A stretch of DNA of 64,000 nt from Dictyostelium discoideum. Taxonomy: Eukaryota. Position numbers and translations under genes: made by a program. Under the pieces are notes generated by a model, which had not been told where the DNA came from, searched no databases, and was given only the letters and a program-made list of their open reading frames with translations. Below are positions 7,607 through 45,263 of the stretch, piece by piece. The stretch is taken from assembly GCA_000004695.1 (NCBI GenBank), contig CM000154.2, positions 4,192,001 through 4,256,000 of the forward strand, given 5' to 3'. The first letter of the stretch is position 1, and each line of letters starts with the position of its first letter.

Positions 7607-8074
7607 TAACCCATAATAATACTTTGAGAGTGGTGAATTTCCAAATAATTCCAGATACCATCTATTTTATTTTTTTTTTTTTTTTTTTTTTTTTATTAGC
7701 ACAATTTGAAAATGAATAATTAAAAAAAATAAATTAAATTCATACACATTTTAAAGGAATAGATTATAACTTTTGATTTTTATATGTAATAGCACACTTT
7801 TACATAAAAAAAAAAAAAAAAAAAAAAAAAACTTTCTTTTATACTCAGTCCAAAATCTTTAAAACCAAATTGTAAAATTTTATTTTTTCCAATTTTGGTA
7901 AATTAAAATATGAGATTTAATCCACAAATATATAAATGGTGATTGTTTTATCTTGATTCTTTTTAAAGTAATTTTTTCATTTAATCTAAAAGATTTTAAT
8001 TGAAAGTGAAAAATAGGGGTTTGCTGATTGATTAAAAAAAAAAAAAATAAAAAAAAAATAAAAAAAAAAATAAA

Positions 8075-8140
8075 AATAAAATAAAATAAAATAAAATAAA
8101 ATAAAATAAAATAAAATAAAATAAAATAAAATAAAATAAA
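8075..8140. repeat. (AAAAT)n microsatellite.
   Basis: Tandem pentamer of about 13 units. Confidence 0.9.
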
Positions 8141-8323
8141 AAAAAACAAAATTAAATTAAATTAAATTAAATAAAAATATTTAAGATCTTGGTCAACTTT
8201 TATTTTTTTGTTTAAATTATTTAATTTATTATTTTAATTTTTTTTATTTTTTTTATTTTTTTTTTATTTAAATATATGTTTTTTATTTTATTTATTTTTA
8301 TTTTATTTTTTTAATATTTAAAG

Positions 8324-9613
8324 TTAAAATAAAAAGTATAAAAATAGAGATACCATTATTAATAAGTATTTTGGTATATTCTTACAAGAGCTATTACCAT
8401 CACTATTCTTTTCGAGTAATTCATTTGAGCTTGAGTGATGAATAAAAGGTGGTGGAGGTGTTCCCCTTTTATGTAATGGTGTTGGTGATACGTTTTCTTC
8501 AGAATCCGAAGATGATGAGTCCATAATTGGCAATGGTGATGCTGATACTGATACTGATGTTGATGCTGATGCTGATTCTGATGCTGATTCTGATTCTGAT
8601 GCTGATGCCGATGGTGATGGTGATTCAGATTGAGAAGATTTACTCTCACTATCTTTTTTTTTATCTTCACTACTAGATTCATTAAACTCACTAGATGCTT
8701 GAATAACCTCTTCAGATGAAGATGGTTTTTCTGTAGAAATTGACATTGGTCTAGAGGATATTGGTGTTTGAGTTGGAGTTGGAGTTTGAGTTTGAGTTGG
8801 TGTTTGGCTTGGTGTTTGAGTCGGGGTTGGTGTTTGACTTGGTGTTGGAGTTGGTGTTTGACTTGGTGTTTGACTTGGTGTTTGACTTGGTGTTTGACTT
8901 GGTGTTTGACTTGGTGTTGGTGTTTGAGTTGGTGTTTGAGTTGGTTTTGGTGTTTGACTTGGTGTTGGTGTTTGACTTGGTGTTTGAGTTTGGGTTGGTG
9001 TTAGTGTTTGAGTTTGAGTTGGTGTTGTTGTTTGAGTTTGAGTTGGTGTTGGTGTTTGAGTTGGTGTTGGTGTTTGGCTTGGTGTTTGACTTTCCTCTAA
9101 TGATGATGATGGTGATGGTGATGGTGATGGTGATGGTGATGGTGATGGTGATGGTGATGGTGATGGTGATGGTGATGGTGATGGTGATGGTGATGGTGAT
9201 GGTGATGGTGATGGTGATGGTGATGGTGATGGTGATGGTGATGGTGATGAGTTTGGATCTAATTCACCACATTTTACTTTAATAAAAGAGTTTAATTCTA
9301 ACCATTCACCATTGCAAGTTAAAGCTTTAGTCATTTCGAAAGCATTTGATCTTGTTGAGCATTGATTATTTTTATAAACATCGAAAATATAACCATTGGT
9401 TAATCTTTTTTTAACGGAAAATGAACGTGTTAATTGATCTTGTTGATCGACATTCTCATCTTTACATATTAAATAACTACATCTATTAGCAAGTGTTACA
9501 TTCTTTATAATACCACCATCTTTACAATTTAAACAAACTGTAAAAATTGTAGTATCAATTGAATATATACCAACTAATACATTAAAAAACAATACTACAA
9601 ATAATAATATTTT

Positions 9614-9616
<3 letters not shown>
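8324..9616 (-). CDS. Secreted or GPI-anchored mucin-like glycoprotein. It has an N-terminal signal peptide, a Cys-containing domain, (SP)24 and (TQTP/SQTP)n repeats, and a C-terminal hydrophobic tail.
   Basis: 430-aa ATG ORF. The signal peptide is [19 protein letters not shown]. The (SP)n tract is encoded by a perfect (GATGGT)23 array on the + strand at 9107-9246. The hydrophobic C-terminus is [15 protein letters not shown]. Confidence 0.65.
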
Positions 9617-9646
<30 letters not shown>

Positions 9647-10033
9647 CTAAAATTGGTAATTTATTTTTTATATTATTTTTTTTTTTTTTACTAAAATTTT
9701 TATATTATTTTTATATTATTGTAATCTAATAAAAAAATTATTTTGAAATGTAATAATGGTTTGTTTGTTTTTTTTTTTTTTTAATTGTTTTATTTATTTT
9801 TTTAATTTGGTTATTTTAATTTAAAAAAAATAAATATATATTATTTTTATTTTGTTTGGTTATTAATCTCTAAATTTAATTTTACAAATGAAAAATGAAT
9901 TGGATTTAAAATAATTTCATACCATAAATAGTGCTTTTGTATATAAAAAATAACAGAAAATCATTGACAATTATTTTTAAATTTTCAACCATGATTTTAT
10001 TTGAATCGTAATTAAAAACAATACCTTTAAAAA

Positions 10034-14913: not shown

Positions 14914-15809
14914 TCATTATATCCAACATTATTAGAGAATAATAATAATAATAATGAAAATAGTTTAATTAAATTATCATCATCACTTTCAAATTATTCA
15001 TTTAATGGCGAAGTATCAGCATATAAACCACCACCAGCAATACCGATTTCAGTTGCATTAGCAAGAAGAAAAACAATATTCAAGAGTAGTACAAGTAGTA
15101 ATTATAATAACTTTGAAATGACATTAGATTTAAATTCTTCAAATGTCGATTTAAATAATTATCAAAATACAGGTTCACATTGTACCGATGATAAAAAATC
15201 AATCATCAAAAATATTTTAAATAATAATTTATTAATTCAATCACAATCCCAACCATCATCAACTTCAACTAATAATAATAATAATAATACATTATTACAA
15301 CAATCGTCATCAGGTGCATTACCACCACTAAAATTTCAACCACCACCAAATGTTACTAGTAATATAGCTAGTACCGCCAATATGGTATTACCAACTAACC
15401 CTTCTGATATTTCATTTCAATCACCACTATCACCTTGTGCACAAAAAGAACAAGATTCTATCATTAATCAAATTGCATCATTGGATTTAACCAAAATTTC
15501 ACCAAGAAAAGTAGATTATAATATTAACAATAATGATAACAATAATACAAGCATAATTCAATCACCATTACAATCAGAAACAACAACAACACCATTGATT
15601 ACTTCAACACTATCATCACCATCAACATCATCACCAATGAAAGGTTCTACCAATAATTCTCCAAATACCAAAACTACAGCTTCAACAACAACTACAACCA
15701 CAACAACAAATAAATCACCAACATCAACAACTGTTGTACCAGTTCAAGCTGAAAATAGAAAAGATAGTTTTATGGCCTTCAAAAAGAGACTATCTTTAAT
15801 GAAATTAAA
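14698..15809 (+). CDS. Exon 2 of the same gene (PELISSILRYFRRQ ... poly-N, S/T-rich).
   Basis: Same frame as the track ORF at 15118..17622, with no stop between 14698 and 15118. The end at 15809 assumes the optional 111-bp intron. If that intron is unspliced, the exon is continuous to 17622. Confidence 0.55.
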
Positions 15810-15920
15810 GTTTGTGTCAAATTTTAAAAAAAACTTTATTTATTTCTTATTTATTTCTTTATTTATTTATAATAAGAGTACTAATACTACTTTTTTTTTT
15901 TTTTTTTTTGTTTTCAATAG

Positions 15921-16320
15921 GGATATGTCATCAAAAAAGAAAGCAACCACAACAAGTAGTAATGATACAAGATATGCAGAAACATCAAGACCAATTCCAA
16001 AATTAAATCCACATTTATCAAATAATAAACCAAAAGTGGCAACGCAACAACCAACAACAAATACAGCATCAAGAGTAACAAAGAGACCAGATTTTGATAA
16101 AATTCATCAAGCCGCTTTTGATAAATTACCTTCAATCGTTGATTATGAAGCAAAAAGAAAAGATCTATGGTTGAAATTAGGTTTTACAACTGTACCTCCA
16201 TTTGTTTCAAATAATAATGATACTACAATAACTACAACTGAATCAGATTCTAATAATACAAATGATAATAATAATAATATAAATGATAATAATACAGACA
16301 ATGATAATGAAAAAAAAAAA

Positions 16321-16370
<50 letters not shown>

Positions 16371-17622
16371 TCAATCAATTGATAGTCATATGGATATGTC
16401 AATTGAGAATAACAATAATAATAATACAACACCACCAAAACCAATACAGCCACAAATATTTAAACCTTCCTCAAATAATTTTAATCCAATTAATCCAATT
16501 ACACCAAAGAAAACAACAACTAATCCATTCCTTTCTTCAAATATTAATTTATCAAGTGTTAAAACTCCAACTAAATTTAAGTCTAGTCTTTCTAGTACAT
16601 TATCATCAATTCCACAAATGTCTTCAGCTGCAATCACTGAAGCTAATAAAACACCTTCAAAACATTCTTCAACAGTTTCATTATTAATGAATAAAAATTT
16701 TAATAATAATAATAATAACAATACACCTACAAATAATACTACTGCCTCAACTCCAACTACCATTACACCAACTTCAACTTCCACTACTTCTGCTACTTCA
16801 ACATCATCATCTTCTTCTTCTAAAACTACTACACCGGGAACTACTGCTGTTAGAAAACCCACCATTCCATCTTTTACATCAGCAACAACAAAACCATCAA
16901 GTAAACCAACAACTTCAACTTCTACTACCACTTCTTCAACATCATCTCTCTTTTCAAATAAACCAACAACCACTAGCACCACTGCATCATCAAAGTCAAC
17001 AACTGTAAATATGAAACCAACAACCTCAACCACTTCCAAATCCACATCAAGTACCACAATGAAACCAAAATCATCCACAACAACATCATCTTCATCTTCA
17101 ACTTCAGTAGCACCCACCACCGTTAGTAAATTACCATCATACGCTCAACCAACTTTTGCTTCAAATTTAAATTCAAAAGTTACACCAACAACTACATCCA
17201 CTAAATCATCTTTAACACCAAAAACTGGTATATTAAAATCAACAACACCAACAAGTTCATCTGAAAGATTGAAATCAAAATTATTATCAACAACAACATC
17301 ATCATCATCATCTTTAACACCAAAATCTTCATCATCAACTCAATCATCTCAATCACCTTTAACCAATATTACAAATACACCACCAAAAGAAACTTCAACA
17401 ACTACAACACCGAAATCAACAATTTTTGGTAATACAAAATCATCCTCTTCAACTACACCTTCATCACCTGGTAAAATAAAGAAAAGAAAGAGTATAAAAT
17501 CAACTGTTGTAATTTCAGGTACTGAAAAAAGAACAATAACACAAAAAAAGACATCTGATCAATCTCATGATTCTCTAATTCAAAGAAAAAGATTAGAACA
17601 ACAAGGGATAATTACAAAATAA
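15921..17622 (+). CDS. Exon 3 of the same gene. It is extremely S/T-rich and mucin-like, with a basic C-terminus (KKRKSIKS...QRKRLEQQGIITK).
   Basis: The candidate intron at 15810-15920 has a GTTTGT donor, a T-rich body and a CAATAG acceptor. It is a multiple of 3, so read-through would insert FVSNFKKNFIYFLFISLFIYNKSTNTTFFFFFFVFNR. Confidence 0.5.
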
Positions 17623-17814
17623 AATAATTTTAATTTTAAAAAAAAATATATAACTTTATTTCTAAATTAATTTTAAAATAAAATTAACTATTCTATCAAT
17701 TTAAATTTTATTGTTATAATTTTAAATTTATTTATTTATTTATTATTTCTTTTTTTTTTTTTTTTTTTTCTTCCATTGAATCATTATTATCATCTTATCT
17801 TAATTATTTAATAT

Positions 17815-18916
17815 TTATTCATCAACATTATCAAGGAAGAAATAATTACCAGCAGCTTTTTGTTCATTATCTTTGATTGAATTTAATTTGTTAATTCTTG
17901 GACGGAAATTGGATGGATCACGACGGAAAGTGATTTCGAGAGATTTAAGGAAAGAGTTCATACCAGTGAGGAGAGATTGTGGAGTATTAGCAACACAAGA
18001 GACACCTGGAATACCATCATAAACGATGACACGATCAGCTAAATAAGTGGCCATAATGAAATCGTGCTCTACGATGAAACCAGATTTACCAGCGTGAAGA
18101 ATGAATCTCTTGATGACTTTAGAGACGATAATACGTTGTTCAGAATCCAAATAAGCGGATGGTTCATCAATGAGATAGATATCAGCAGGTTGACCTAAAC
18201 ATAAAACGATGGCAACACGTTGTAACTCACCACCAGATAAATTGAGTACTTGATTGTCGATGATGTTTTCAATGTTTAATGGTTTAACGACATCGGATTG
18301 GAATTGTGGATGAAGGAAAGTGTTGCAAATACGTTTATTAATCAATTCTCTAACGGAACCTGGGAATTTTGGATCGATTTTTTGTGGTTTGTAACTGACA
18401 TTCAACTCTGGAACTTGAGCATCAGTATCGGATGGCATATGACCAGCCAACATTCTGATAAAGGTGGTCTTACCGGTACCGTTTTGACCCAACATAACGA
18501 TGATTTCAGAATCTGTGAATTGACCTGCTTTAATTTCCAATTTGAAGGTACCCATTGTTTTGGTCATATTTGGATATTTGTAGTTACAATGTTTCTTGAT
18601 CTCTTCTTCATTCTCTGCTGTCTCTGAGAATTTAAAGGTTAATGCATCCTTACGGAATCTCATATTCTCTGTGTGAATATAACCACTAAGGAAAATATTA
18701 ATACCTTCTCTAACAGAGAATGGTAATGTTACAACACCATAAGCACCTGGTGCTCCATAAAGACAACAAATAAAATCTGATAAGTAATCTAAAACACTAA
18801 GATCATGTTCAACTACAATAATATAATTTTGTGATTGAATTAAACCTCTAATAACTTGTGCTGCCTTTAATCTTTGTTTAACATCAAGATAACTTGATGG
18901 TTCATCAAACATATAA
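17815..18916 (-). CDS. abcE1: abcE1 (ABCE1 / RNase L inhibitor), C-terminal exon (from ...[16 protein letters not shown] to the end). It covers the twin ABC nucleotide-binding domains.
   Basis: Walker A (GQNGTGKTT), the LSGGELQR signature, and Walker B ([12 protein letters not shown]). Acceptor TATAG at 18917-18921 on the minus strand. Confidence 0.9.
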
Positions 18917-37550: not shown

Positions 37551-38435
37551 ATGAAAAATATATCTATATTAATAACTATATTATTATTATTTTTAACAAG
37601 TTTAATAATAAATTTATCAAATTCATATAAATTAGAAAGATATATTGAAGAAAAAGATTGGGAAATAATTGAAAATGAAAAAGAAAATGTATTTAAACCT
37701 GTAATTGTTGAAAGAAGAGAATTATTATTCTTTAGATTCCAAAGAAGTGGAAATACTGAAAATTCATCATCAACTGAATCTGTATCAGTAAAATTTGAAA
37801 TCCATTCAAAAGATATTCAAGAAACTTTTTATTTATTTGGATTAAATAATGAAACTTCTATTAGAAATATTAAAGATGTAGAATTAAAAGATAGAAAAGA
37901 AGAAACCACTCCAATTAGAAAAGAAGCTTGTTTCGACCCTATTAAACCATTATACTTTTCATTATCAATGTTTAATTATTTATGGGGTGGTGATTTATTA
38001 TTCACAATTCAAGAAAATAATTCAAGTTATTGTATAAATTCAATGCCTAAAACGAAAAATGAAACTATTACTCTTATTTCAACTGAAATTCCCACCCCTA
38101 CTCCTACTCCTACCTCTACCCCTACTCCTACCTCTACCCCTACTCCAACCCCTACCTCTACCCCTACTCCAACCCCTACTCCTTCAAAATTATCAAATGA
38201 TACTGTAACTTCTAATAATGTTACCTCTTCACCATTAATTACTCCAACGAGTGTGAGTGTTACTCCTTCACCACCAAAGGTTGAAAATGTACCTGTTATT
38301 GTATCAAATAAACAAAAAATTGAATCTGATTATACTGAATCTGAAGTACCAATTGATACTACTAAGAAATCTCTTGTGGAAACTAGTCCAGCTGTAGAAA
38401 ATAAACAAATAGAATCAAATAGTAATAATAAATAA
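37551..38435 (+). CDS. Secreted or type I membrane protein with a signal peptide (MKNISILITILLLFLTSLIINLSNS) and a (PTPTST)n Pro/Thr-rich stalk.
   Basis: 294-aa ATG ORF with an N-terminal hydrophobic leader and a PT-repeat tract, giving a glycoprotein-like architecture. Confidence 0.6.
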   Translation: MKNISILITILLLFLTSLIINLSNSYKLERYIEEKDWEIIENEKENVFKPVIVERRELLFFRFQRSGNTENSSSTESVSVKFEIHSKDIQETFYLFGLNNETSIRNIKDVELKDRKEETTPIRKEACFDPIKPLYFSLSMFNYLWGGDLLFTIQENNSSYCINSMPKTKNETITLISTEIPTPTPTPTSTPTPTSTPTPTPTSTPTPTPTPSKLSNDTVTSNNVTSSPLITPTSVSVTPSPPKVENVPVIVSNKQKIESDYTESEVPIDTTKKSLVETSPAVENKQIESNSNNK

Positions 38436-38497
38436 ATAAAAAAAATATTAATTTTATAATTTACATAAAAAGTATTTTATTTTATTGTTTGTTGTTG

Positions 38498-39122
38498 TTA
38501 TTGTTGTTGAGCATGTAAAGTTTTATGAGCAATTGTAACAGCTTTAACAGATAAATAACTTTGAATTGCATATTCAGATAGGTCACGACCAATACCAGAT
38601 TGTTTATAACCACCAAATGGTATTGATGGCATGATTGAATAATATTCATTAATCCAAACTGAACCACTTTTTAATTTATTTGAAACATTTAATGCTAAAC
38701 TGATATCTTTAGTCCAAACACCAGCTGCTAAACCATAGGTTGTGTTATTTGCTCTTTTAATTACTTCATCAACAGTTTTGAATGGTAAAATTACAACAAC
38801 AGGACCAAAGATTTCTTCTTTACAAATTGTCATATCATCAGTGACATTGGTGAAAATAGTTGGTTGAACGAAATAACCTTTACCATCGGCATGATGATAA
38901 TTACCACCACCTAAATGACAAGTTGCACCTTCTTCTTTACCTTTTTGGATGTAACCTAATACACGATCATGTTGTTGTTTACTAACTAATGGGCCTAAAT
39001 TTGTACCATTTACATTTGGATCACCAACTTTTAATAATTTAATATTCTCTGTGAAAATTTGTAAAAATGCTTCATAGATATTCTCTTGAACAAAGAATCT
39101 TGATGGAGCACAACATGACTGC
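38498..39122 (-). CDS. Aldehyde dehydrogenase paralog A, exon 3 (G + QSCCAPSRFFVQE ... to the C-terminus). It includes the catalytic Cys.
   Basis: Acceptor TTATAG ending at 39123. The frame is continuous with the track ORF at 38498..38833. ALDH motifs are QSCCAPSR and EEIFGPV. Confidence 0.85.
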
Positions 39123-39252
39123 CTATAAAATTTTAAAAAGGGTGAAGAGGGGGGTTGAAAAAAAAAAAAAAAAAAAAAATTAATTTTCCAGTTCCAATTT
39201 TTTCTTTTGGTTAATTAAAAAAGGTAAGATAATTATATATATATATACTTAC

Positions 39253-39962
39253 ATGCTATTGGCGAAAACGTAATCCTTAGCACATTGTGCAATATGGTTA
39301 ACGTCACAGTCGTTAAAGAAGATATTTGGTGATTTTCCACCAAGTTCTAATGTCACTGGTTTTAAATTACTCTTTGCTGCACCCTCCATAATTAATCTAC
39401 CAGTTATAGTTGAACCAGTGAATGAAATCTTATCGATATCCATATGATGTGATAATGCACTACCAACAGTTGCACCAAACCCATTTACTAAATTGAAAAC
39501 ACCAGGTGGGAAACCAGCTTCTTTAATTAACTCACAAAGATATAACGCAGTCAATGGGGTGAATTCAGATGGTTTAGCAACGATTGTGCAACCTGCAGCT
39601 AAAGCTGGTCCCAATTTCCAACATAATAACATACATGGATAATTCCAAGCAACAATTAAAGCAACTACACCAATTGGTTCATGTCTGGTAATTGATGTAT
39701 ATTCATTACTAATTGGAATGGTTTTACCTTGAATTTTATCAGCCCAACCACCGAAATAACGAAGAGTCTTTTCTGATTGTGTTATATCATATCCTTTTGA
39801 TGCTGTCAATGGTTTACCATTATCTAATGTTTCTAATTGTGCTAAATTATCTTTATGTTTTTCAATTAAATCTGCAAATTTTAATATAATTCTACCTCTA
39901 TCTTCAGATGTCATTTTACTCCATTCTCCATTTTCTAATGCTTCTCTTGCTGCTTTCACTGC
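39253..39962 (-). CDS. ALDH-A exon 2 (AVKAAREALENGEWSKMTSEDRG ... ELGGKSPNIFFNDCDVNHIAQCAKDYVFANS-M).
   Basis: Acceptor TTATAG ending at 39963. The exon ends ...AGC AT, and the donor GTAAGT at 39252-39247 contains the track ORF's stop. The ELGGKSP glutamate motif is present. Confidence 0.85.
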
Positions 39963-40083
39963 CTATAAAAAAAAATTTTGAAAAAAAAAAAAAAAAAAAA
40001 AAAGGGGTGAAGAGGGGATTAATTTTCCAGTTCCATTTTTTTTTTTTTTTGTTTTATTAAAAAATTATTATATATATACTTAC

Positions 40084-40233
40084 AATATCAACATCAGCTT
40101 TATCACCTTCAGAAACTTCACAAATTAATTCTTCATTCACTGGATTAAATGTTTTAAATTTCTTTCCAGAAACTGACTCTACCCATTCATTATTAATAAA
40201 TAATTTTGTGTTTGGTAATTGAACTTTTGACAT
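40084..40233 (-). CDS. ALDH-A exon 1 ([50 protein letters not shown]).
   Basis: ATG at 40233. Donor GTAAGT at 40083-40078. The exon is 50 codons, the same as exon 1 of paralogs B and C. Confidence 0.85.
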
Positions 40234-40731
40234 TTTATTGTTTAATTAAACTTTAATTGATTGAATAAAAGAAAAAAAAAAAACATTTTCGTTTGCAGTC
40301 TTTTTAATAAAAAAAAAAAAAAAACAAAAAAAAATAAAAAAATAAAAAAATTAAATTAAAAAAAAAATAAAAAATAAAAAAAAAATCTAAAAATTTTCAC
40401 AATCAAAAAGCAACACTGTTTCGGTTAAAAATAATTTTAATTAATTAATTTTTTTTTTTTTTTTTTTAGATATATAAACGATTTTCGAAATAACACTTTC
40501 CTTTTATAAAAAAAAAAAAAATAAAAAAAAAATAAAAATAAAAATAAAAATAAAAAAAAAAACCAAACTGATACCCAAAATAATAAATAAAAAAAAAAAA
40601 AAAATAAATAAAATAAAAGAATAAAACTAAAATATTCCAGAACATTTTATTTTAAAATAAAATTTTTATTTTATTTTTTATTTTATTTTTTATTTTATTT
40701 TTTTTATTTTTTTTATTTTTTTTATTTCATT

Positions 40732-42069
40732 TTATTGTTGTTGAGCATGTAAAGTTTTATGAGCAATTGTAACAGCTTTAACAGATAAATAACCTTGAAT
40801 TGCATATTCAGATAAATCACGACCAAAACCGGATTGTTTGAAACCACCAAATGGAATTTGAGATTTTAAGATATTGAAACCATTTACCCAAACTGAACCA
40901 CTCTTTAATTTATTTGAAACATTTAATGCTAAACTAATATCTTTAGTCCAAACACCAGCTGCTAAACCATAGGTTGTGTCATTTGCTCTTTTAATTACTT
41001 CATCAACAGTTTTGAATGGTAAAATTACAACAACAGGACCAAAGATTTCTTCTTTACAAATTGTCATATCATCAGTGACATTGGTGAAAATAGTTGGCTG
41101 AATGAAATAACCAGCACCATCGGCATGATGATTATGAACTTCACCACCTAAATGACAAGTTGCACCTTCCTCTTTACCCTTTTGAATGTAACCTAAAACA
41201 CGATCATGTTGTTGTTTACTAACCAATGGACCTAAATGAGTTTCACTATCATATGGATCACCAACTTTTAATTGTTTAATCTTCTCTGTGAATATTGTCA
41301 AGAAAGCATCAAGAATACTCTCATGAACAAAGAATCTTGAAGCGGCACAGCATAGCTGCATACTATTTGCAAAAACGTAATTTTTTGCAGCATTGGCCAC
41401 ATATTCAATGTCGCAGTCACCAAAGATGATATTTGGAGATTTACCACCAAGTTCTAATGTCACCGGTTTCAAATTACTCTTTGCAGCAGCCTCCATAATT
41501 AATCTACCAACTCTAGTTGAACCGGTGAATGAAATCTTGTCAACATCCATATGATGTGATAATGCATCACCAACTACATCACCAACACCATTTACAATAT
41601 TAATTACACCAGGTGGGAAACCAGCCTCCTTAACCAATTCACAAAAGTATAAAGCAGTCAATGGGGTGAACTCAGATGGTTTAGCAACTATTGTACAACC
41701 TGCAGCTAAGGATGGTCCCAATTTCCAAGACAATAGTAACAATGGGAAATTCCAAGCAACGATTAATCCAACTACACCAATTGGTTCATGTTTGGTCATT
41801 GCAGTGAATTCACTACTAATTGGGATGGTTTTACCTTGAATTTTATCAGCCCAGCCACCGAAATAACGTAAAGCTCTAGCAGCTTCAGTAATATCAAAAC
41901 CACTTGATGCTGTCAATGGTTTACCATTATCCAATGTTTCTAAATCTGATAAATGCTCTCTATGTTGATCAACTAAATCTGCCAATTTCAATATTAATTT
42001 ACCTCTATCTTCTGCTGTCATTTTACCCCATGGTCCATTGTCTAATGCATTTCTTGCTGCTTTAACTGC
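40732..42069 (-). CDS. Aldehyde dehydrogenase paralog B, exon 2 (AVKAARNALDNGPWGKMTAEDRG ... to the end). It has no second intron.
   Basis: Track ORF at 40732..42021 extended upstream to the acceptor TTTATAG ending at 42070. Motifs are ELGGKSP and QLCCAASR. Confidence 0.85.
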   Translation of the reverse strand, partial: AVKAARNALDNGPWGKMTAEDRGKLILKLADLVDQHREHLSDLETLDNGKPLTASSGFDITEAARALRYFGGWADKIQGKTIPISSEFTAMTKHEPIGVVGLIVAWNFPLLLLSWKLGPSLAAGCTIVAKPSEFTPLTALYFCELVKEAGFPPGVINIVNGVGDVVGDALSHHMDVDKISFTGSTRVGRLIMEAAAKSNLKPVTLELGGKSPNIIFGDCDIEYVANAAKNYVFANSMQLCCAASRFFVHESILDAFLTIFTEKIKQLKVGDPYDSETHLGPLVSKQQHDRVLGYIQKGKEEGATCHLGGEVHNHHADGAGYFIQPTIFTNVTDDMTICKEEIFGPVVVILPFKTVDEVIKRANDTTYGLAAGVWTKDISLALNVSNKLKSGSVWVNGFNILKSQIPFGGFKQSGFGRDLSEYAIQGYLSVKAVTIAHKTLHAQQQ

Positions 42070-42221
42070 CTATAAAATAAAAAAATAAAAAAATAAAAAA
42101 ATAAAAAAATAAAAAAATAAAAAATAAAAAATAAAAAAATAGAAAATAAAATATTAATTAATTACTTAAAAAAAAAAAAAAAAAAAATTCTATTCATTAA
42201 AAATATTGTTTTTATACGTAC

Positions 42222-42371
42222 AACATCAACATCTTCTTTACCACCTTCTGAAACTTCACAAATTAATTTTCCATTTGTTGGATTAAAAGTTTTTAATTTC
42301 TTTCCAGAAACTGACTCTACCCATTCATTATTAATAAATAATTTAGTATTTGGTAATTGAACTTTAGACAT
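42222..42371 (-). CDS. ALDH-B exon 1 ([50 protein letters not shown]).
   Basis: ATG at 42371. Donor GTACGT at 42221-42216. Intron of 152 bp. Confidence 0.85.
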
Positions 42372-42455
42372 TATATTTTTGTTTAATAATTAATGAAGGA
42401 AAAAAAAAAAATTAATAATAAAAAAAAAAAAGGTGGATATTCATAAATAATATCA

Positions 42456-42494
<39 letters not shown>

Positions 42495-43158
42495 AAATTA
42501 AATTAAATTAAATCTCAGGATGATTGAAGTTTTTTGAGGTTGAATATTAAAAAAAAAAAAATAATAAAAAATAAATAATTGAAGAAAAAAAAAATCTATT
42601 ATAAAGATTGGTGTGAAACCAATGAAAAAAAAAAAAAAAATCTATTATTTATAAAGATTTGTGTGAAACCAATGAAAAAAAAAAAAAATAATAAAAAGAA
42701 AGTTGATATTTAAAAAATTAAATTATTTTTATTAAATTGTTTGAATTTTTGATTTTTTTATTAAACTGTTTGAATTTTTATTATTTTAATTATTTTAAAA
42801 AAAAAATTCTATTGAATGTTTAAAGAACTTCTGAACGTTTGTTCTGAATTAAACCAAACACGGGATAATTTTAAAATTACTTTGTTTGAATATTTAATAT
42901 TAAAAAAATATTTTTCTATTTGGGAATTGTTGTTCTGAATGATTGTTCTATCAAAAAAAAGTTTTTTTTTATTTTTTTTTTTTTCAATTTTACAATTTTA
43001 TTTTTTTTTTAATTTTTTTTTATTTTTTGTAATTTAATTTTTATTTTAATTTATTTTTTTTAATTTATTTTTTTTAATTATTTAAATAAAAAAAAAAAAA
43101 AAAAATTTATTCATTCTTAAATTTTAAAAATAAAATTAATAATAAATTTAAAAAAATA
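42372..43158. promoter_or_regulatory. Bidirectional (head-to-head) intergenic region shared by ALDH-B (-) and ALDH-C (+).
   Basis: 787 bp between divergent ATGs. It contains a tandem duplicated block (gattggtgtgaaaccaatgaaaaaaaaaaaaaaaatctattat...) at about 42612-42690. Confidence 0.35.
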
Positions 43159-43308
43159 ATGTCAAAAGTTCAATTACCAAACACAAAATTATTTATTAAC
43201 AATGAATGGGTAGAGTCAATTTCTGGAAAGAAATTTAAAACATTTAATCCAACAAATGAAGAATTAATTTGTGAAGTTTCTGAAGGTGATAAGGAAGATG
43301 TTGATAAA
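43159..43308 (+). CDS. Aldehyde dehydrogenase paralog C, exon 1 ([50 protein letters not shown]).
   Basis: ATG at 43159. Donor GTATTT at 43309. Confidence 0.85.
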
Positions 43309-43357
43309 GTATTTATAAATATTTTTTGAAAAATTAAAAAAAAAAGTTTTGTAAAAA

Positions 43358-43399
<42 letters not shown>

Positions 43400-43460
43400 T
43401 AATATGTTTTTATTTTTTATTTATTTTTATTTTTTATTTTTTATTTTTTTTTTTTAATAG

Positions 43461-44795
43461 GCAGTAAAAGCAGCAAGAAATGCATTTGAAAATGGACCAT
43501 GGGGTACAACAATGTCATCAGAAGAAAGAGGTAGAATTATATTGAAATTGGCAAATTTAATTGAAAACCATAAAGAGAAACTTGCACAATTGGAAACATT
43601 GGATAATGGTAAATCAATTGTTTCAGCAAGGGAAGATATTGATTTTTGTGTTAGAGTAATTCGTTATTTCGGTGGTTGGGCTGATAAAATTCAAGGCAAA
43701 ACCATCCCAATTAGTAGTGAATTCACATCGATTACTAAACACGAGGCAATTGGTGTAGTTGCTTTAATTGTTGCTTGGAATTATCCAGTGATGTTGTTAT
43801 GTTGGAAATTGGGACCAGCTTTAGCTGCAGGTTGTACAATCGTTGCTAAATCATCTGAATTCACCCCATTGACTGCATTATATCTTTGTGAATTATTTAA
43901 AGAAGCTGGTTTCCCACCTGGTGTTTTCAATTTAGTCAATGGGTTTGGTGCAACTGTTGGTAATGCATTATCATATCATATGGATATCGATAAGATTTCA
44001 TTCACTGGTTCAACTATAACTGGTAGAAAAATTATGGAAGGTGCAGCAAAGAGTAACTTAAAACCAGTGACATTAGAACTTGGTGGTAAGTCTCCAAATA
44101 TCTTCTTTTCAGACTGCCAAATTGATCATTGTGTTGAGGCTGCTAAGGATTACGTATTCTCAAATAACAGTCAAAACTGTTGCTTCTCATCAAGATTCTT
44201 TGTTCATGAGAGTATCCATGACGCTTTCTTGGCATTATTCACAGAGAAGATTAAACAATTAAAAGTTGGTGATCCATATGAAGAATCCAACAATTTAGGC
44301 CCATTGGTTAGTAAACAACAACATGATCGTGTATTGGGTTACATTGAAAAAGGTAAGAGTGAAGGTGCAACTTGCCATTTAGGTGGTGTTAAACATCAAA
44401 TTGATGGTAAAGGTTATTTCGTTCAACCAACTATTTTCACCAATGTCACTGATGATATGACAATTTGTAAAGAAGAAATCTTTGGTCCTGTTGTCGTAAT
44501 TTTAAAATTCAAAACTGTTGATGAAGTAATTAAAAGAGCAAATAACACAACCTATGGTTTAGCAGCTGGTATTTGGACTAAAGATATCAGTTTAGCATTA
44601 AATGTTTCAAATAAATTAAAAGCTGGTTCAGTTTGGGTAAATAATTATGATAACTGTTTACCACAAGTACCATTCGGTGGTTTCAAACAATCTGGTATTG
44701 GTCGTGATTTATCTGAATATGCAATTCAAAGCTATTTATCTGTTAAAGCTGTTACAATTGCTCATAAAACTTTACATGCTCACCAACAACAATAA
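43461..44795 (+). CDS. ALDH-C exon 2 (AVKAARNAFENGPWGTTMSSEERG ... to the end).
   Basis: Acceptor TTTTTAATAG at 43451-43460. The frame is continuous with the track ORF at 43512..44795. Motifs are ELGGKSP and QNCCFSSR. Confidence 0.85.
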   Translation, partial: AVKAARNAFENGPWGTTMSSEERGRIILKLANLIENHKEKLAQLETLDNGKSIVSAREDIDFCVRVIRYFGGWADKIQGKTIPISSEFTSITKHEAIGVVALIVAWNYPVMLLCWKLGPALAAGCTIVAKSSEFTPLTALYLCELFKEAGFPPGVFNLVNGFGATVGNALSYHMDIDKISFTGSTITGRKIMEGAAKSNLKPVTLELGGKSPNIFFSDCQIDHCVEAAKDYVFSNNSQNCCFSSRFFVHESIHDAFLALFTEKIKQLKVGDPYEESNNLGPLVSKQQHDRVLGYIEKGKSEGATCHLGGVKHQIDGKGYFVQPTIFTNVTDDMTICKEEIFGPVVVILKFKTVDEVIKRANNTTYGLAAGIWTKDISLALNVSNKLKAGSVWVNNYDNCLPQVPFGGFKQSGIGRDLSEYAIQSYLSVKAVTIAHKTLHAHQQQ

Positions 44796-44849
44796 AATAA
44801 AAATAAAAATAAAATAAATTTAAAAATATATATATTTATTTATTTATTT

Positions 44850-45263
44850 TTAAATTAATGTTTTTTTTAAATATTTACTACCTTCTCTAATTGAAAGAAT
44901 TGATAAATTATTACGATTTAATTCAATAAATTCAAAAACTTTATTATGATGAGTTTTACTTAATTGTCTTAAACTCCAACCAATTGCTTTTCTAATAAAG
45001 AATTCTTTATTAAAATTATCATTTACCAATAATTTATTAATAAAATTAAATAGTAAATCAATATTAATTTGATCCTTTTTAAAAGTTAATTGAAATAATA
45101 AACAAATTCTACGATCCCAAAAACTATCACTTTCAATCCATTTATCTGTATATTCTTTTATTTGATCCGGATATTCTTTAAAATGTCCACCAATTAATTT
45201 AGATGAAATTATATCAATTGTATCCCAAAATGGTTCAGTTTGTGCAAATTTTTCATAAAGTTC
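44850..45263 (-). CDS. AlkD-like DNA alkylation repair glycosylase (HEAT-like repeat family), exon 3 (ELYEKFAQTEPFWDTIDII ... FFIRKAIGWSLRQLSKTHHNKVFEFIELNRNNLSILSIREGSKYLKKTLI).
   Basis: Acceptor AATAAG ending at 45264. Stop TAA at 44852-44850. FFIRKAIGWSLRQLSK matches the conserved AlkD-family helix. Confidence 0.65.
   Translation of the reverse strand, partial: ELYEKFAQTEPFWDTIDIISSKLIGGHFKEYPDQIKEYTDKWIESDSFWDRRICLLFQLTFKKDQINIDLLFNFINKLLVNDNFNKEFFIRKAIGWSLRQLSKTHHNKVFEFIELNRNNLSILSIREGSKYLKKTLI

Follow-up and report, generated by a model that had tools for sequence, protein, structure and literature searches.

Three aldehyde dehydrogenase (ALDH) genes, A, B and C, lie intact within 6298 bp (38498-44795) of the window, the whole 64-kb stretch of Dictyostelium discoideum DNA analysed here. 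They are most alike at their ends, and gene A carries a second intron that genes B and C lack. How old is this cluster, what keeps its members alike in some segments and distinct in others, and where did the additional intron come from?

Gene models and age of the cluster

Spliced products of A, B and C match annotated D. discoideum AX4 proteins exactly, hence the cluster was already annotated (accessions in Table 1). An earlier note, made from the letters by eye, had described three full-length ALDH genes, A and B in tandem and B and C head-to-head across a shared 787-bp region; the spliced models confirm these placements, and the spacer has exactly this length. Its motifs around the catalytic Cys were also read correctly (QSCCAPSR in A, QLCCAASR in B and QNCCFSSR in C), and all three genes are intact, with ELGGKSP present in each and the catalytic Cys invariant. 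The first 50 codons, called nearly identical in that note, are indeed alike, but this was overstated, as each pair differs by 4-7 amino acids and 10-15 nt. Each gene matches the Pfam Aldedh profile (PF00171) at positions 1-461 of 461 with 587-594 bits, and the best relatives of solved structure are ALDH1A1 and ALDH2 (phmmer E = 1e-171 to 1e-165, full length). By sequence, these are the NAD-dependent aldehyde dehydrogenases of class 1/2 and cytosolic type that make up the annotated AX4 trio.

Table 1. Features of the ALDH cluster, in window positions
Feature	Position	Strand	Remarks
ALDH gene A	38498-40233	minus	494 aa; Q54FY3 / XP_635634
Gene A exon 1	40084-40233	minus	spliced model
Gene A intron 1	39963-40083	minus	121 nt, phase 0, after codon 50
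Gene A exon 2	39253-39962	minus	spliced model
Gene A intron 2	39123-39252	minus	130 nt, phase 2
Gene A exon 3	38498-39122	minus	spliced model
ALDH gene B	40732-42371	minus	495 aa; Q54FY2 / XP_635635; one intron
Gene B exons	42222-42371 + 40732-42069	minus	intron 42070-42221
Divergent B-C intergenic region	42372-43158		787 bp
Tandem duplication, 50-nt unit (TCTATTAT..GTGTGAAACCAATG)	42582-42681	plus	AX4-specific
TTCTGAA-N6-TTCTGAA pair	42829-42848	plus	candidate conserved cis element
ALDH gene C	43159-44795	plus	494 aa; Q54FY1 / XP_635636; one intron
Gene C exons	43159-43308 + 43461-44795	plus	intron 43309-43460
Main conversion tract	A 38684-38863, B 40918-41097, C 44427-44606	A minus	
3'-terminal conversion tract	A 38501-38593, B 40735-40827, C 44697-44792		
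A-C only conversion tract	A 39351-39665, C 43758-44072	A minus	copies inverted
Conversion-resistant island, mouth	A 39711-39845	minus	ALDH2 residues 113-126
Conversion-resistant island, around Cys302	A 38996-39305	minus	span includes intron 2
Conversion-resistant island 3, neck loop	A 38594-38683, B 40828-40917, C 44607-44696		ALDH2 residues 455-463

The similarity among the copies had been taken as a sign of recent local duplication. The duplication is local, but the triplication is already old. The C/B/A trio is syntenic in eight further genomes (two of D. citrinum, D. firmibasis, D. dimigraforme, two 'cf. discoideum' and two further D. discoideum), and divergence between orthologs reaches dS ~0.45-0.57. 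A phylogeny of the three copies, which the earlier note had proposed, bears out duplication and contradicts recency: in a tree of five genomes, ortholog groups A, B and C are each monophyletic with 100% bootstrap, A+B+C is supported at 99%, and D. purpureum copies branch outside. The triplication dates from the interval between the D. purpureum split and the time when D. discoideum, D. citrinum, D. firmibasis and D. dimigraforme radiated. Great similarity of exon 1 and the 3' ~370 nt among copies would fit a recent cluster whose near-identical ends simply remain from its origin. However, orthologous trios of such divergence, together with the fully supported clades, leave this explanation virtually no chance; moreover, in each lineage the alike tracts cluster by species, a pattern that independent recency cannot yield. 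Synteny and segment trees refute it.

The divergent region between B and C contains a tandem duplication of a 50-nt unit, whose copies (42582-42631 and 42632-42681) are 84% identical. The duplicated block that the earlier note had pointed out at 42612-42690 is thus real, but it is confined to AX4 and is not a conserved element; the unit is single copy in FIR, FIW and FIY, and none is found in more distant species. A paired TTCTGAA motif, TTCTGAA-N6-TTCTGAA, has its only exact match in the 64-kb window here, with a second, degenerate pair at about 42920-42945. The pairing recurs in the B-C spacer of all species compared (degenerate in D. dimigraforme), where surrounding sequences are not alignable between species, and may represent a conserved cis element.

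Gene conversion and the substrate channel

Concerted evolution by recurrent gene conversion maintains the near-identity of both gene ends, 5' and 3', and the argument for recency drawn from it fails. This conclusion is based on sliding-window distances, neighbour-joining (NJ) trees of short segments, and run-length permutation and third-position tests. In the main tract, distances are 0.00-0.04 between paralogs and 0.03-0.13 between orthologs, and genes cluster by species rather than by ortholog in the NJ tree. The most alike tract (CDS nt ~1120-1300) includes a run of 117 nt identical between A and B, a length that none of 5000 permutations attained. Strong purifying selection on the protein might in principle produce alike tracts without any conversion, and the tracts do encode conserved ALDH core motifs such as EEIFGPV. 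However, at third codon positions of the same tract paralogs differ at 1-2 of 60 and orthologs at 7-13 of 60, and synonymous states are common to the paralogs of one species, which cluster together. Selection without conversion is hence exceedingly improbable. A further tract involves only A and C, with distances of 0.02-0.06 against 0.03-0.14 among A and C orthologs, and in the tree of this segment A joins the C copy of its own species in D. citrinum, D. firmibasis and D. dimigraforme.

The result is a mosaic: conversion keeps exon 1, CDS nt ~1120-1300 and the last ~90 nt alike within each species, and conversion between the inverted copies A and C does the same for CDS nt ~450-765 in these two genes only. 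Three short islands remain paralog-specific and conserved across species (ALDH2 residues 113-126, 286-305 and 455-463). Trees of island segments group strictly by ortholog. The majority of fixed residues that are specific to one paralog lie in these islands, which correspond to segments of the substrate entry channel, residues 124 and 459 among them. Homogenised tracts with resistant specificity segments are a common pattern in tandem gene families, and the within-species homogenisation and paralog-specific segments seen here are like those of other families under concerted evolution. Different from those families, the present case is an amoebozoan metabolic enzyme trio that includes one inverted copy, and its resistant segments correspond to the three walls of a single substrate channel.

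Catalytic and cofactor residues are all unchanged across A, B and C orthologs; N169, K192, E195, G245, G250, E268, C302, E399 and F401 (human ALDH2 numbering) do not vary among the 24 genes examined in 8 genomes. Like human and sheep ALDH1A1 and human ALDH2, the Dictyostelium enzymes have Cys302, Glu268, Asn169, Lys192, Glu399 and GxxxxG in ~495 aa; absence of a mitochondrial presequence is a difference within this class 1/2 comparison. The 'bottom' residue 303 is Cys as in ALDH2 and, being Cys in all three genes, does not discriminate the paralogs. Mouth residue 124 (E or Q in A, E in B, F in C) and neck residue 459 (I in A, L in B, C in C) fit neither the ALDH2 signature (M, F) nor that of ALDH1 (G, V/L) (PMC8160307).

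Thirty sites discriminate the paralogs as fixed differences across 8 genomes, and 29 of these fall in the tested range. Seventeen of the 29 lie within 47 substrate-entry-channel positions (expected 2.8; P = 7e-12), among which only positions 124, 303 and 459 were taken from PMC8160307 and the segments were delimited from literature and background knowledge after the data had been seen. Seven fixed paralog-specific residues are located at 456-463, five at 113-126 and four at 286-305. Substrate sub-specialisation, which the earlier note had suggested as possible, gains support as an inference from this concentration of discriminating residues in the channel, where conversion is escaped. Because the conversion-resistant islands line the substrate entry channel, A, B and C most likely share their catalytic machinery and differ in aldehyde preference. 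Selection may remove convertants with swapped channel segments.

The second intron of gene A

Intron 2 of gene A, which the earlier note had passed over, is a recently gained full-length copy of intron 1 of the same gene. It is the reciprocal best non-self match of intron 1 in the window. Their local alignment scores 108, whereas 2000 shuffles reached at most 62 and 1213 real AT-rich windows at most 74, and in FIR and FIW the two introns are collinear from GT to AG. Intron 1 carries TGGAACTGGAAAATTAAT and CCCCTCTTCACCC, and within the window both motifs are confined to introns 1 and 2 of gene A. An intron at the intron-1 position is present in A, B and C of all eight dissected genomes, and its motif-bearing form is limited to gene A within the discoideum clade (AX4, FIR, FIW, FIY and FIZ). 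Among nine genomes from the D. discoideum group, which comprises D. discoideum, D. citrinum, D. firmibasis and D. dimigraforme, intron 2 is present in AX4, FIR and FIW only; it is absent from the six others and from every B and C gene, and D. purpureum has no intron at this site. A clade of the three carriers is backed by 51 informative sites, the alternative groupings by 12 and 15. The carriers differ from each other by dS ~0.07, and the empty site of FIZ is identical to the AX4 intron-2 flanks.

Intron 2 splits the Met287 codon (AT|G) just before Gln288, three codons upstream of the catalytic Cys290. The spliced CDS contains TGCAGT just twice, at nt 150 and nt 860, and both occurrences are intron sites. 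No target-site duplication, flanking exon sequence or direct repeat is found at intron 2, and the introns show neither a stable fold (z-scores -0.5 and +0.4) nor terminal repeats. The copied element in the gene A introns reads GGAACTGGAAAATTAAT...CCCCTCTTCACCC.

Compared with other D. discoideum genomes, gene A has a dN/dS of 0.07-0.08 over the whole gene and 0.03-0.065 in exon 3, where partial maintenance by conversion from B and C weakens the argument for selection. The non-converted part of exon 3 has 3-4 synonymous and 0-1 non-synonymous changes. Strong purifying selection on gene A since the gain implies that intron 2 must be spliced, and from this selection, the annotation and the canonical splice signals (GTAAGT...ATAG) we infer splicing in vivo. 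If the insertion had instead inactivated gene A, the insert would stay unspliced and the downstream ORF would persist only through conversion from B and C; a retained insert does give an immediate TAA (ATG TAA), and exon 3 is partly homogenised with those two genes. However, no frameshifts or stops have appeared in the three carrier genomes despite their divergence, low dN/dS extends across the whole gene, the A-specific neck island downstream of intron 2 is unchanged, and the splice signals are preserved in all three carriers. Inactivation is hardly credible in view of these data.

Possible routes of intron gain

Intron 2 might be ancestral and lost elsewhere, or belong to a mobile introner family, considering that precise intron loss is common in D. 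discoideum and that such families exist in other protists and fungi. However, an ancestral intron would have to be lost precisely and independently in FIY, FIZ, the D. citrinum/D. firmibasis/D. dimigraforme lineages, B, C, D and D. purpureum, and its similarity to intron 1 would stay unexplained. A family is contradicted by the lack of any further copy in the window or in the ~135 kb of seven related loci, and by the missing terminal repeats, target-site duplication and stable fold. Both are very unlikely. Copying from intron 1 could have proceeded by spliceosomal reverse splicing into the gene's own mRNA, followed by reverse transcription and local recombination. The copy extends exactly from GT to AG without exon flanks or target-site duplication, and the donor sits in the same transcript. 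To our knowledge, reverse splicing does not need a target that resembles the exon junction of the donor itself, and the TGCAGT match would then be a coincidence of roughly 1 in 1500 sites; moreover, because intron 1 is retained, only a short conversion tract can have been used. Such a model has been described (PMC3443670), and intron loss mediated by reverse transcriptase is documented in Dictyostelium (PMC4683709), but no in vivo demonstration exists of an intron reverse splicing into a new site. We regard this route as quite possible, short of probable.

Microhomology-mediated template switching, either in DNA repair or conversion or in reverse transcription between spliced and unspliced RNA, could also have copied intron 1, with the 5-nt GCAGT priming the switch and a 1-nt T priming the return. 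Donor and target share T|GCAGT, a hexamer with no third occurrence in the mRNA, the two sites are in cis at a genomic distance of about 830 bp, and recurrent homologous repair is demonstrated at the locus. In addition, the third base of Gln288 is A (CAA) in FIY, D. citrinum, D. firmibasis and D. dimigraforme and G (CAG) in the carriers, as expected if GCAG arrived with the insert; however, FIZ also has G without intron 2. The left junction is exactly at the first intron base with 1 nt of microhomology only, so that its precision calls for either good fortune or strong selection favouring a product that can be spliced and is in frame, and templated insertions of 130 nt exceed the typical length. 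Template switching is a tentative explanation to which we give the same weight as to reverse splicing.

Intron transposition or duplication in Oikopleura and Mycosphaerella (PMC3443670) also concerned intron-derived, precise insertions polarised by close relatives, whereas gene A presents a single intragenic event in Amoebozoa, whose donor and target share the exon-junction TGCAGT. Introners and introner-like elements of Micromonas and fungi are likewise intron-sized copies entering coding positions with their own splice signals, but they form multi-copy families, often longer, structured or with transposon hallmarks; here only two copies are seen, both in gene A, and they show neither a significant fold nor a target-site duplication. 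Gained introns flanked by short direct repeats usually have no identifiable source (PMC3443670, PMC4683709). Intron 2 resembles them as a recent, lineage-restricted gain at a frequently repaired locus, but its source is identified and a direct repeat is absent. The only Dictyostelium survey found sources for 2 of 40 intron gains, neither an entire intron of any gene (PMC4683709).

The combined picture, an old annotated trio with a conversion mosaic and an intron 2 copied from intron 1 in gene A, is one that we hold with good confidence. The trio itself was already annotated, and the intron copy is the new result. In the D. discoideum lineage, after the split from 'cf. discoideum' FIY and FIZ, a full-length copy of intron 1 of gene A was inserted precisely 710 coding nt downstream, at the mRNA's only other TGCAGT, and the insertion created a phase-2 intron next to the catalytic Cys codon.

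Arrangement, identity and age of the cluster

Gene models of the three clustered aldehyde dehydrogenase (ALDH) genes A, B and C were read from both strands of window positions 38400-45000, in AT-rich eukaryotic DNA with short introns. B and C lie head-to-head across a spacer of exactly 787 bp. By exact-sequence look-up, the spliced products are identical to the AX4 proteins Q54FY3 (XP_635634), Q54FY2 (XP_635635) and Q54FY1 (XP_635636) for A, B and C, and the cluster is therefore already in the public annotation.

Features of the ALDH cluster of AX4 and of its B-C spacer, in window positions
Feature	Position	Strand	Introns	Product or occurrence
Gene A	38498-40233	minus	39963-40083, 39123-39252	494 aa
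Gene B	40732-42371	minus	42070-42221	495 aa
Gene C	43159-44795	plus	43309-43460	494 aa
Tandem-duplicated 50-nt unit (TCTATTAT..GTGTGAAACCAATG)	42582-42681			two copies in AX4; one copy in FIR, FIW and FIY
Exact TTCTGAA-N6-TTCTGAA	42829-42848			unique in the 64-kb window
Further TTCTGAA pair, 6-nt spacer	~42920-42945			B-C spacer

Three intact genes without a pseudogene among them had been proposed in the earlier note, and this is borne out by full-length matches to Pfam PF00171 (Aldedh), which score 594, 593 and 587 bits for A, B and C over profile positions 1-461/461 against a curated cut-off of 23 bits, and by the invariance of catalytic and cofactor residues. Residues are numbered here after human ALDH2; the length of the reference sequence and its residues 124, 192, 268, 302, 303, 459 and 465 agree with expectation. 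Cys302 (catalytic nucleophile), Glu268 (general base, within ELGGKSP), Asn169, the NAD-binding Lys192, Glu399 and G245/G250, and likewise Glu195 and Phe401, are the same in 24/24 genes from eight genomes. Among PDB entries, ALDH1A1 (E = 5e-171) and ALDH2 (E = 1e-164) come nearest over query residues 3-485, with E about 1e-171 to 1e-165 overall. Judged by these closest solved relatives, all three proteins belong to the ALDH1/2 class, in which they are ordinary members. No biochemical data on the three proteins were found in the literature searched, and a search by their UniProt accessions returned no papers. A proteomics study mentions an ALDH, gi 66818493 / DDB0231504, which is left out of the evidence on A, B and C (PMC3546656).

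The trio had also been described as a recent duplication, which is refuted by synteny and phylogeny. Among the loci encoding the closest relatives, the C/B/A order with the same flanking genes is found in eight other genomes: two of D. citrinum, those of D. firmibasis and D. dimigraforme, the 'cf. discoideum' genomes FIY and FIZ, and the further D. discoideum genomes FIR and FIW. All 24 genes are intact in the eight genomes dissected in full; the second D. citrinum locus was examined for arrangement and gene A only. A neighbor-joining protein tree built from five of these genomes recovers separate A, B and C clades, all with 100% bootstrap, and a joint A+B+C clade with 99%; a fourth copy, seen in D. 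dimigraforme alone, is sister to A+B+C (95%), and two D. purpureum copies fall outside. According to this tree, the triplication is therefore older than the radiation of these species, between whose orthologs dS reaches up to ~0.45-0.57.

Several features of the related loci accompany these comparisons. The fourth D. dimigraforme paralog (P0009, 490 aa; L007 10001-11552) is tail-to-tail with gene A and has no counterpart there in AX4 or any other genome compared; it was either lost elsewhere or retained there alone. The two D. purpureum genes (L008 10001-14744) are also tail-to-tail, in a different genomic context, and have introns around codons 148, 211 and 255 and none at codon 50, so that intron 1 of A, B and C is not common to this species. 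Compared with AX4, FIR and FIW (ACTFIR, ACTFIW), which are labelled D. discoideum, show dS of 0.07-0.15 in the ALDH genes and ~8-9% difference over the whole locus. This seems high for a single species, and towards gene C the 'cf. discoideum' genome FIY lies at a similar distance from AX4. In FIY, the gap between B and A is ~2.5 kb instead of ~0.5 kb (L004 9594-12086) and contains short open reading frames only.

In the B-C spacer, the promoter block flagged in the earlier note does hold a real tandem duplication of two 50-nt units, but it is found in AX4 only and was set aside as a regulatory feature on that ground. Paired TTCTGAA motifs occur in this spacer in all Dictyostelium species compared, degenerate in D. 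dimigraforme, within surroundings that cannot be aligned, and they are a candidate for a shared regulatory element. The spacer of FIZ is 1366 nt long (L006 6635-8000), with the promoter block internally duplicated around an unrelated insert of ~600 nt. A tRNA scan of the window found none. Away from the cluster, the composition profile shows very strong GC skew, +0.37 to +0.46 at 8001-10000 and -0.36 to -0.50 at 15001-18000; these stretches are probably strand-biased repetitive coding sequence.

Gene conversion and the substrate channel

Conversion mosaics are a known evolutionary mode in tandem gene families. Sliding windows of nucleotide distance along the codon alignment show that, in exon 1, at CDS nt ~1120-1300 and in the last ~90 nt, distances among the AX4 paralogs fall below those separating each paralog from its orthologs; the A-C distance is also below the ortholog distance at nt ~450-765. 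The tree of nt 1126-1305 groups sequences by species, joining A+B+C of D. citrinum, of D. firmibasis and of D. dimigraforme and placing the discoideum complex together, whereas trees of nt 271-405, 811-990 and 1306-1395 group cleanly by ortholog. At third codon positions of nt 1126-1305, AX4 paralogs differ at 1-2/60 sites and AX4 differs from D. citrinum orthologs at 7-13/60. Purifying selection alone is insufficient, because the paralogs have synonymous states in common. Identical runs as long as the longest between paralogs (117, 92 and 68 nt) came up in 0, 0.06% and 0.2% of the permutations, respectively. The pattern is one of recurrent gene conversion, a form of concerted evolution in which the inverted pair A-C takes part.

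At 30 alignment columns, the residue is constant inside every ortholog group across the eight genomes but differs from group to group, and these columns are concentrated at residues 113-126, 173-176, 286-305 and 456-463. Segments of the substrate-entry channel, comprising 47 positions that we assigned to it after the data were seen, hold 17/29 of the tested discriminating sites where 2.8 are expected (hypergeometric P = 7e-12). Residue 301, directly before the catalytic Cys, follows the same pattern, being S in A, L in B and N in C, and the QSCC, QLCC and QNCC difference previously read for the three genes belongs to it. At the mouth of the channel, position 124 is E/Q in A, E in B and F in C; at its neck, position 459 is I, L and C, respectively; and at its bottom, position 303 is C in all three. 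The published channel signatures are M124, F459 and C303 for ALDH2, and G124, V/L459 and T/I/V303 for ALDH1 (PMC8160307). Cys303 of A, B and C is thus ALDH2-like, but no copy fully fits either signature.

These islands, which resist conversion, suggest one common scaffold that would carry three different substrate channels, with selection acting against convertants in which channel walls have been swapped. The substrate sub-specialisation suggested in the earlier note is plausible, and residues 113-126, 301/304/305 and 456-463 can be nominated for probing the aldehyde substrates of A, B and C. The cluster would then be a compact case of a tandem enzyme family partitioned by conversion and selection, with the scaffold homogenised and three channel walls kept distinct.

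Intron 2 of gene A

In addition to intron 1, which follows codon 50, gene A has a 130-nt phase 2 intron that is not present in B or C. This intron 2 splits the Met287 codon between AT and G and lies directly before Gln288, three codons ahead of the catalytic Cys. Both introns of A begin GTAAGTATATAT, both carry TGGAACTGGAAAATTAAT and CCCCTCTTCACCC, neither of which occurs elsewhere in the 64-kb window, and both end TTTTATAG, followed by GCAGT; the motif pair that they have in common is GGAACTGGAAAATTAAT...CCCCTCTTCACCC. An 18-mer and a 13-mer common to the two introns are unique in the window, and the introns are reciprocal best non-self matches within it. Their local alignment score is 108, whereas the best of 2000 dinucleotide shuffles scored 62 and the best of 1213 real AT-rich windows 74. 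In FIR and FIW, introns 1 and 2 are collinear over their full length. Intron 1 of AX4 later lost the T-run between both motifs, so intron 2 retains the older layout, which is also kept in intron 1 of FIY and FIZ. FIZ has an empty site, AATAGCAT^GCAGTCATG, with the same sequence as the flanks of intron 2 in AX4, and the insertion was precise, with no exon sequence co-duplicated and no target-site duplication. Intron 2 is a recently gained copy of intron 1 of the same gene.

The carriers of intron 2 are AX4, FIR and FIW. It is absent from gene A of FIY and FIZ, of both D. citrinum genomes, and of D. firmibasis and D. dimigraforme, from every B, C or D gene examined, and from either D. purpureum gene. 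In the 5.7 kb surrounding gene A, AX4, FIR and FIW are joined against FIY and FIZ by 51 informative sites, and the alternative groupings have 12 and 15. The carriers thus form a clade and a single gain is enough; a position of FIY inside this clade, which would imply loss, was rejected on the same counts. An ancestral intron 2 followed by multiple losses was rejected on parsimony, and it would leave the similarity to intron 1 unexplained. Intron 2 is predicted to be spliced, because gene A has been strongly constrained since the gain (dN/dS of AX4 against FIR and FIW is 0.07-0.08 over the whole gene and 0.03-0.065 in exon 3) and has no frameshift or stop in any of the three carriers.

Origin of intron 2 and its implications

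Reverse splicing and template switching would both be compatible with the sequence of intron 2. In reverse splicing, the excised intron 1 would enter its own mRNA, and reverse transcription and local recombination would then return the product to the gene. This accounts for the exact GT-to-AG boundaries of the copy. However, it leaves unexplained why the spliced A mRNA has TGCAGT at two places and no others, nt 150/151 and 860/861, which are both intron positions. Template switching primed by microhomology could have happened while DNA was repaired at this locus, which is prone to conversion, or when a reverse transcriptase jumped between spliced and unspliced transcripts. It accounts for the GCAGT match; yet its other junction must hit the first base of the intron exactly with 1 nt of homology, presumably via selection for a spliceable in-frame product. 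The downstream G of GCAGT may have been transferred together with the intron, but FIZ has this G without intron 2. The junction-hexamer match offers a concrete handle for telling the two routes apart.

A mobile introner family is unlikely as the source, since the motifs yielded no further copies in the window and seven related loci (~135 kb; ~200 kb in total) and the insertion lacks a target-site duplication, a stable fold and an Rfam match. A structured or snoRNA-like element was also considered and dropped: neither intron folds beyond its shuffles (z-scores -0.54 and +0.39), and neither hosts a known RNA, as no Rfam family matched anywhere in the window at its gathering threshold. The motif pair of the introns had 0 matches in a metagenome scan, which carries no information because the collection would not be expected to contain D. 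discoideum.

Rarely has a source been identified for a spliceosomal intron gained recently. For eukaryotes as a whole, a review of 2012 recognised 14 unambiguous events of the transposition type, all in Mycosphaerella and Oikopleura, and stated that intron transposition had no in vivo demonstration (PMC3443670). Intron 2 falls in the same 'intron transposition/duplication' category as these cases. The single survey of intron gain in Dictyostelium listed 40 putative gains in D. discoideum and found sources for 2/40, neither of them a whole intron (PMC4683709). The supplementary text of Ma et al. 2015 that was searched shows no sign of gene A, and surveys based on ortholog sets may omit paralog-rich families such as these ALDHs. 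As far as can be told from the literature searched, the gain of intron 2 has not been described before.

Overall, the locus adds a new case to processes that are already known in kind. The cluster itself is ordinary, and of greatest interest in it is the lineage-specific copy of intron 1, for which the donor intron and both the empty and the filled target allele are known, in a model organism that is easy to manipulate genetically. It is possible, although we lean somewhat against it, that intron 2 represents a natural, datable transposition of a spliceosomal intron in Amoebozoa, in which excised intron 1 entered its own mRNA by reverse splicing, at a site that resembles its exon junction. If this is true, a long-debated mechanism would become directly testable, with donor, empty and filled sites in closely related culturable strains of a tractable organism.
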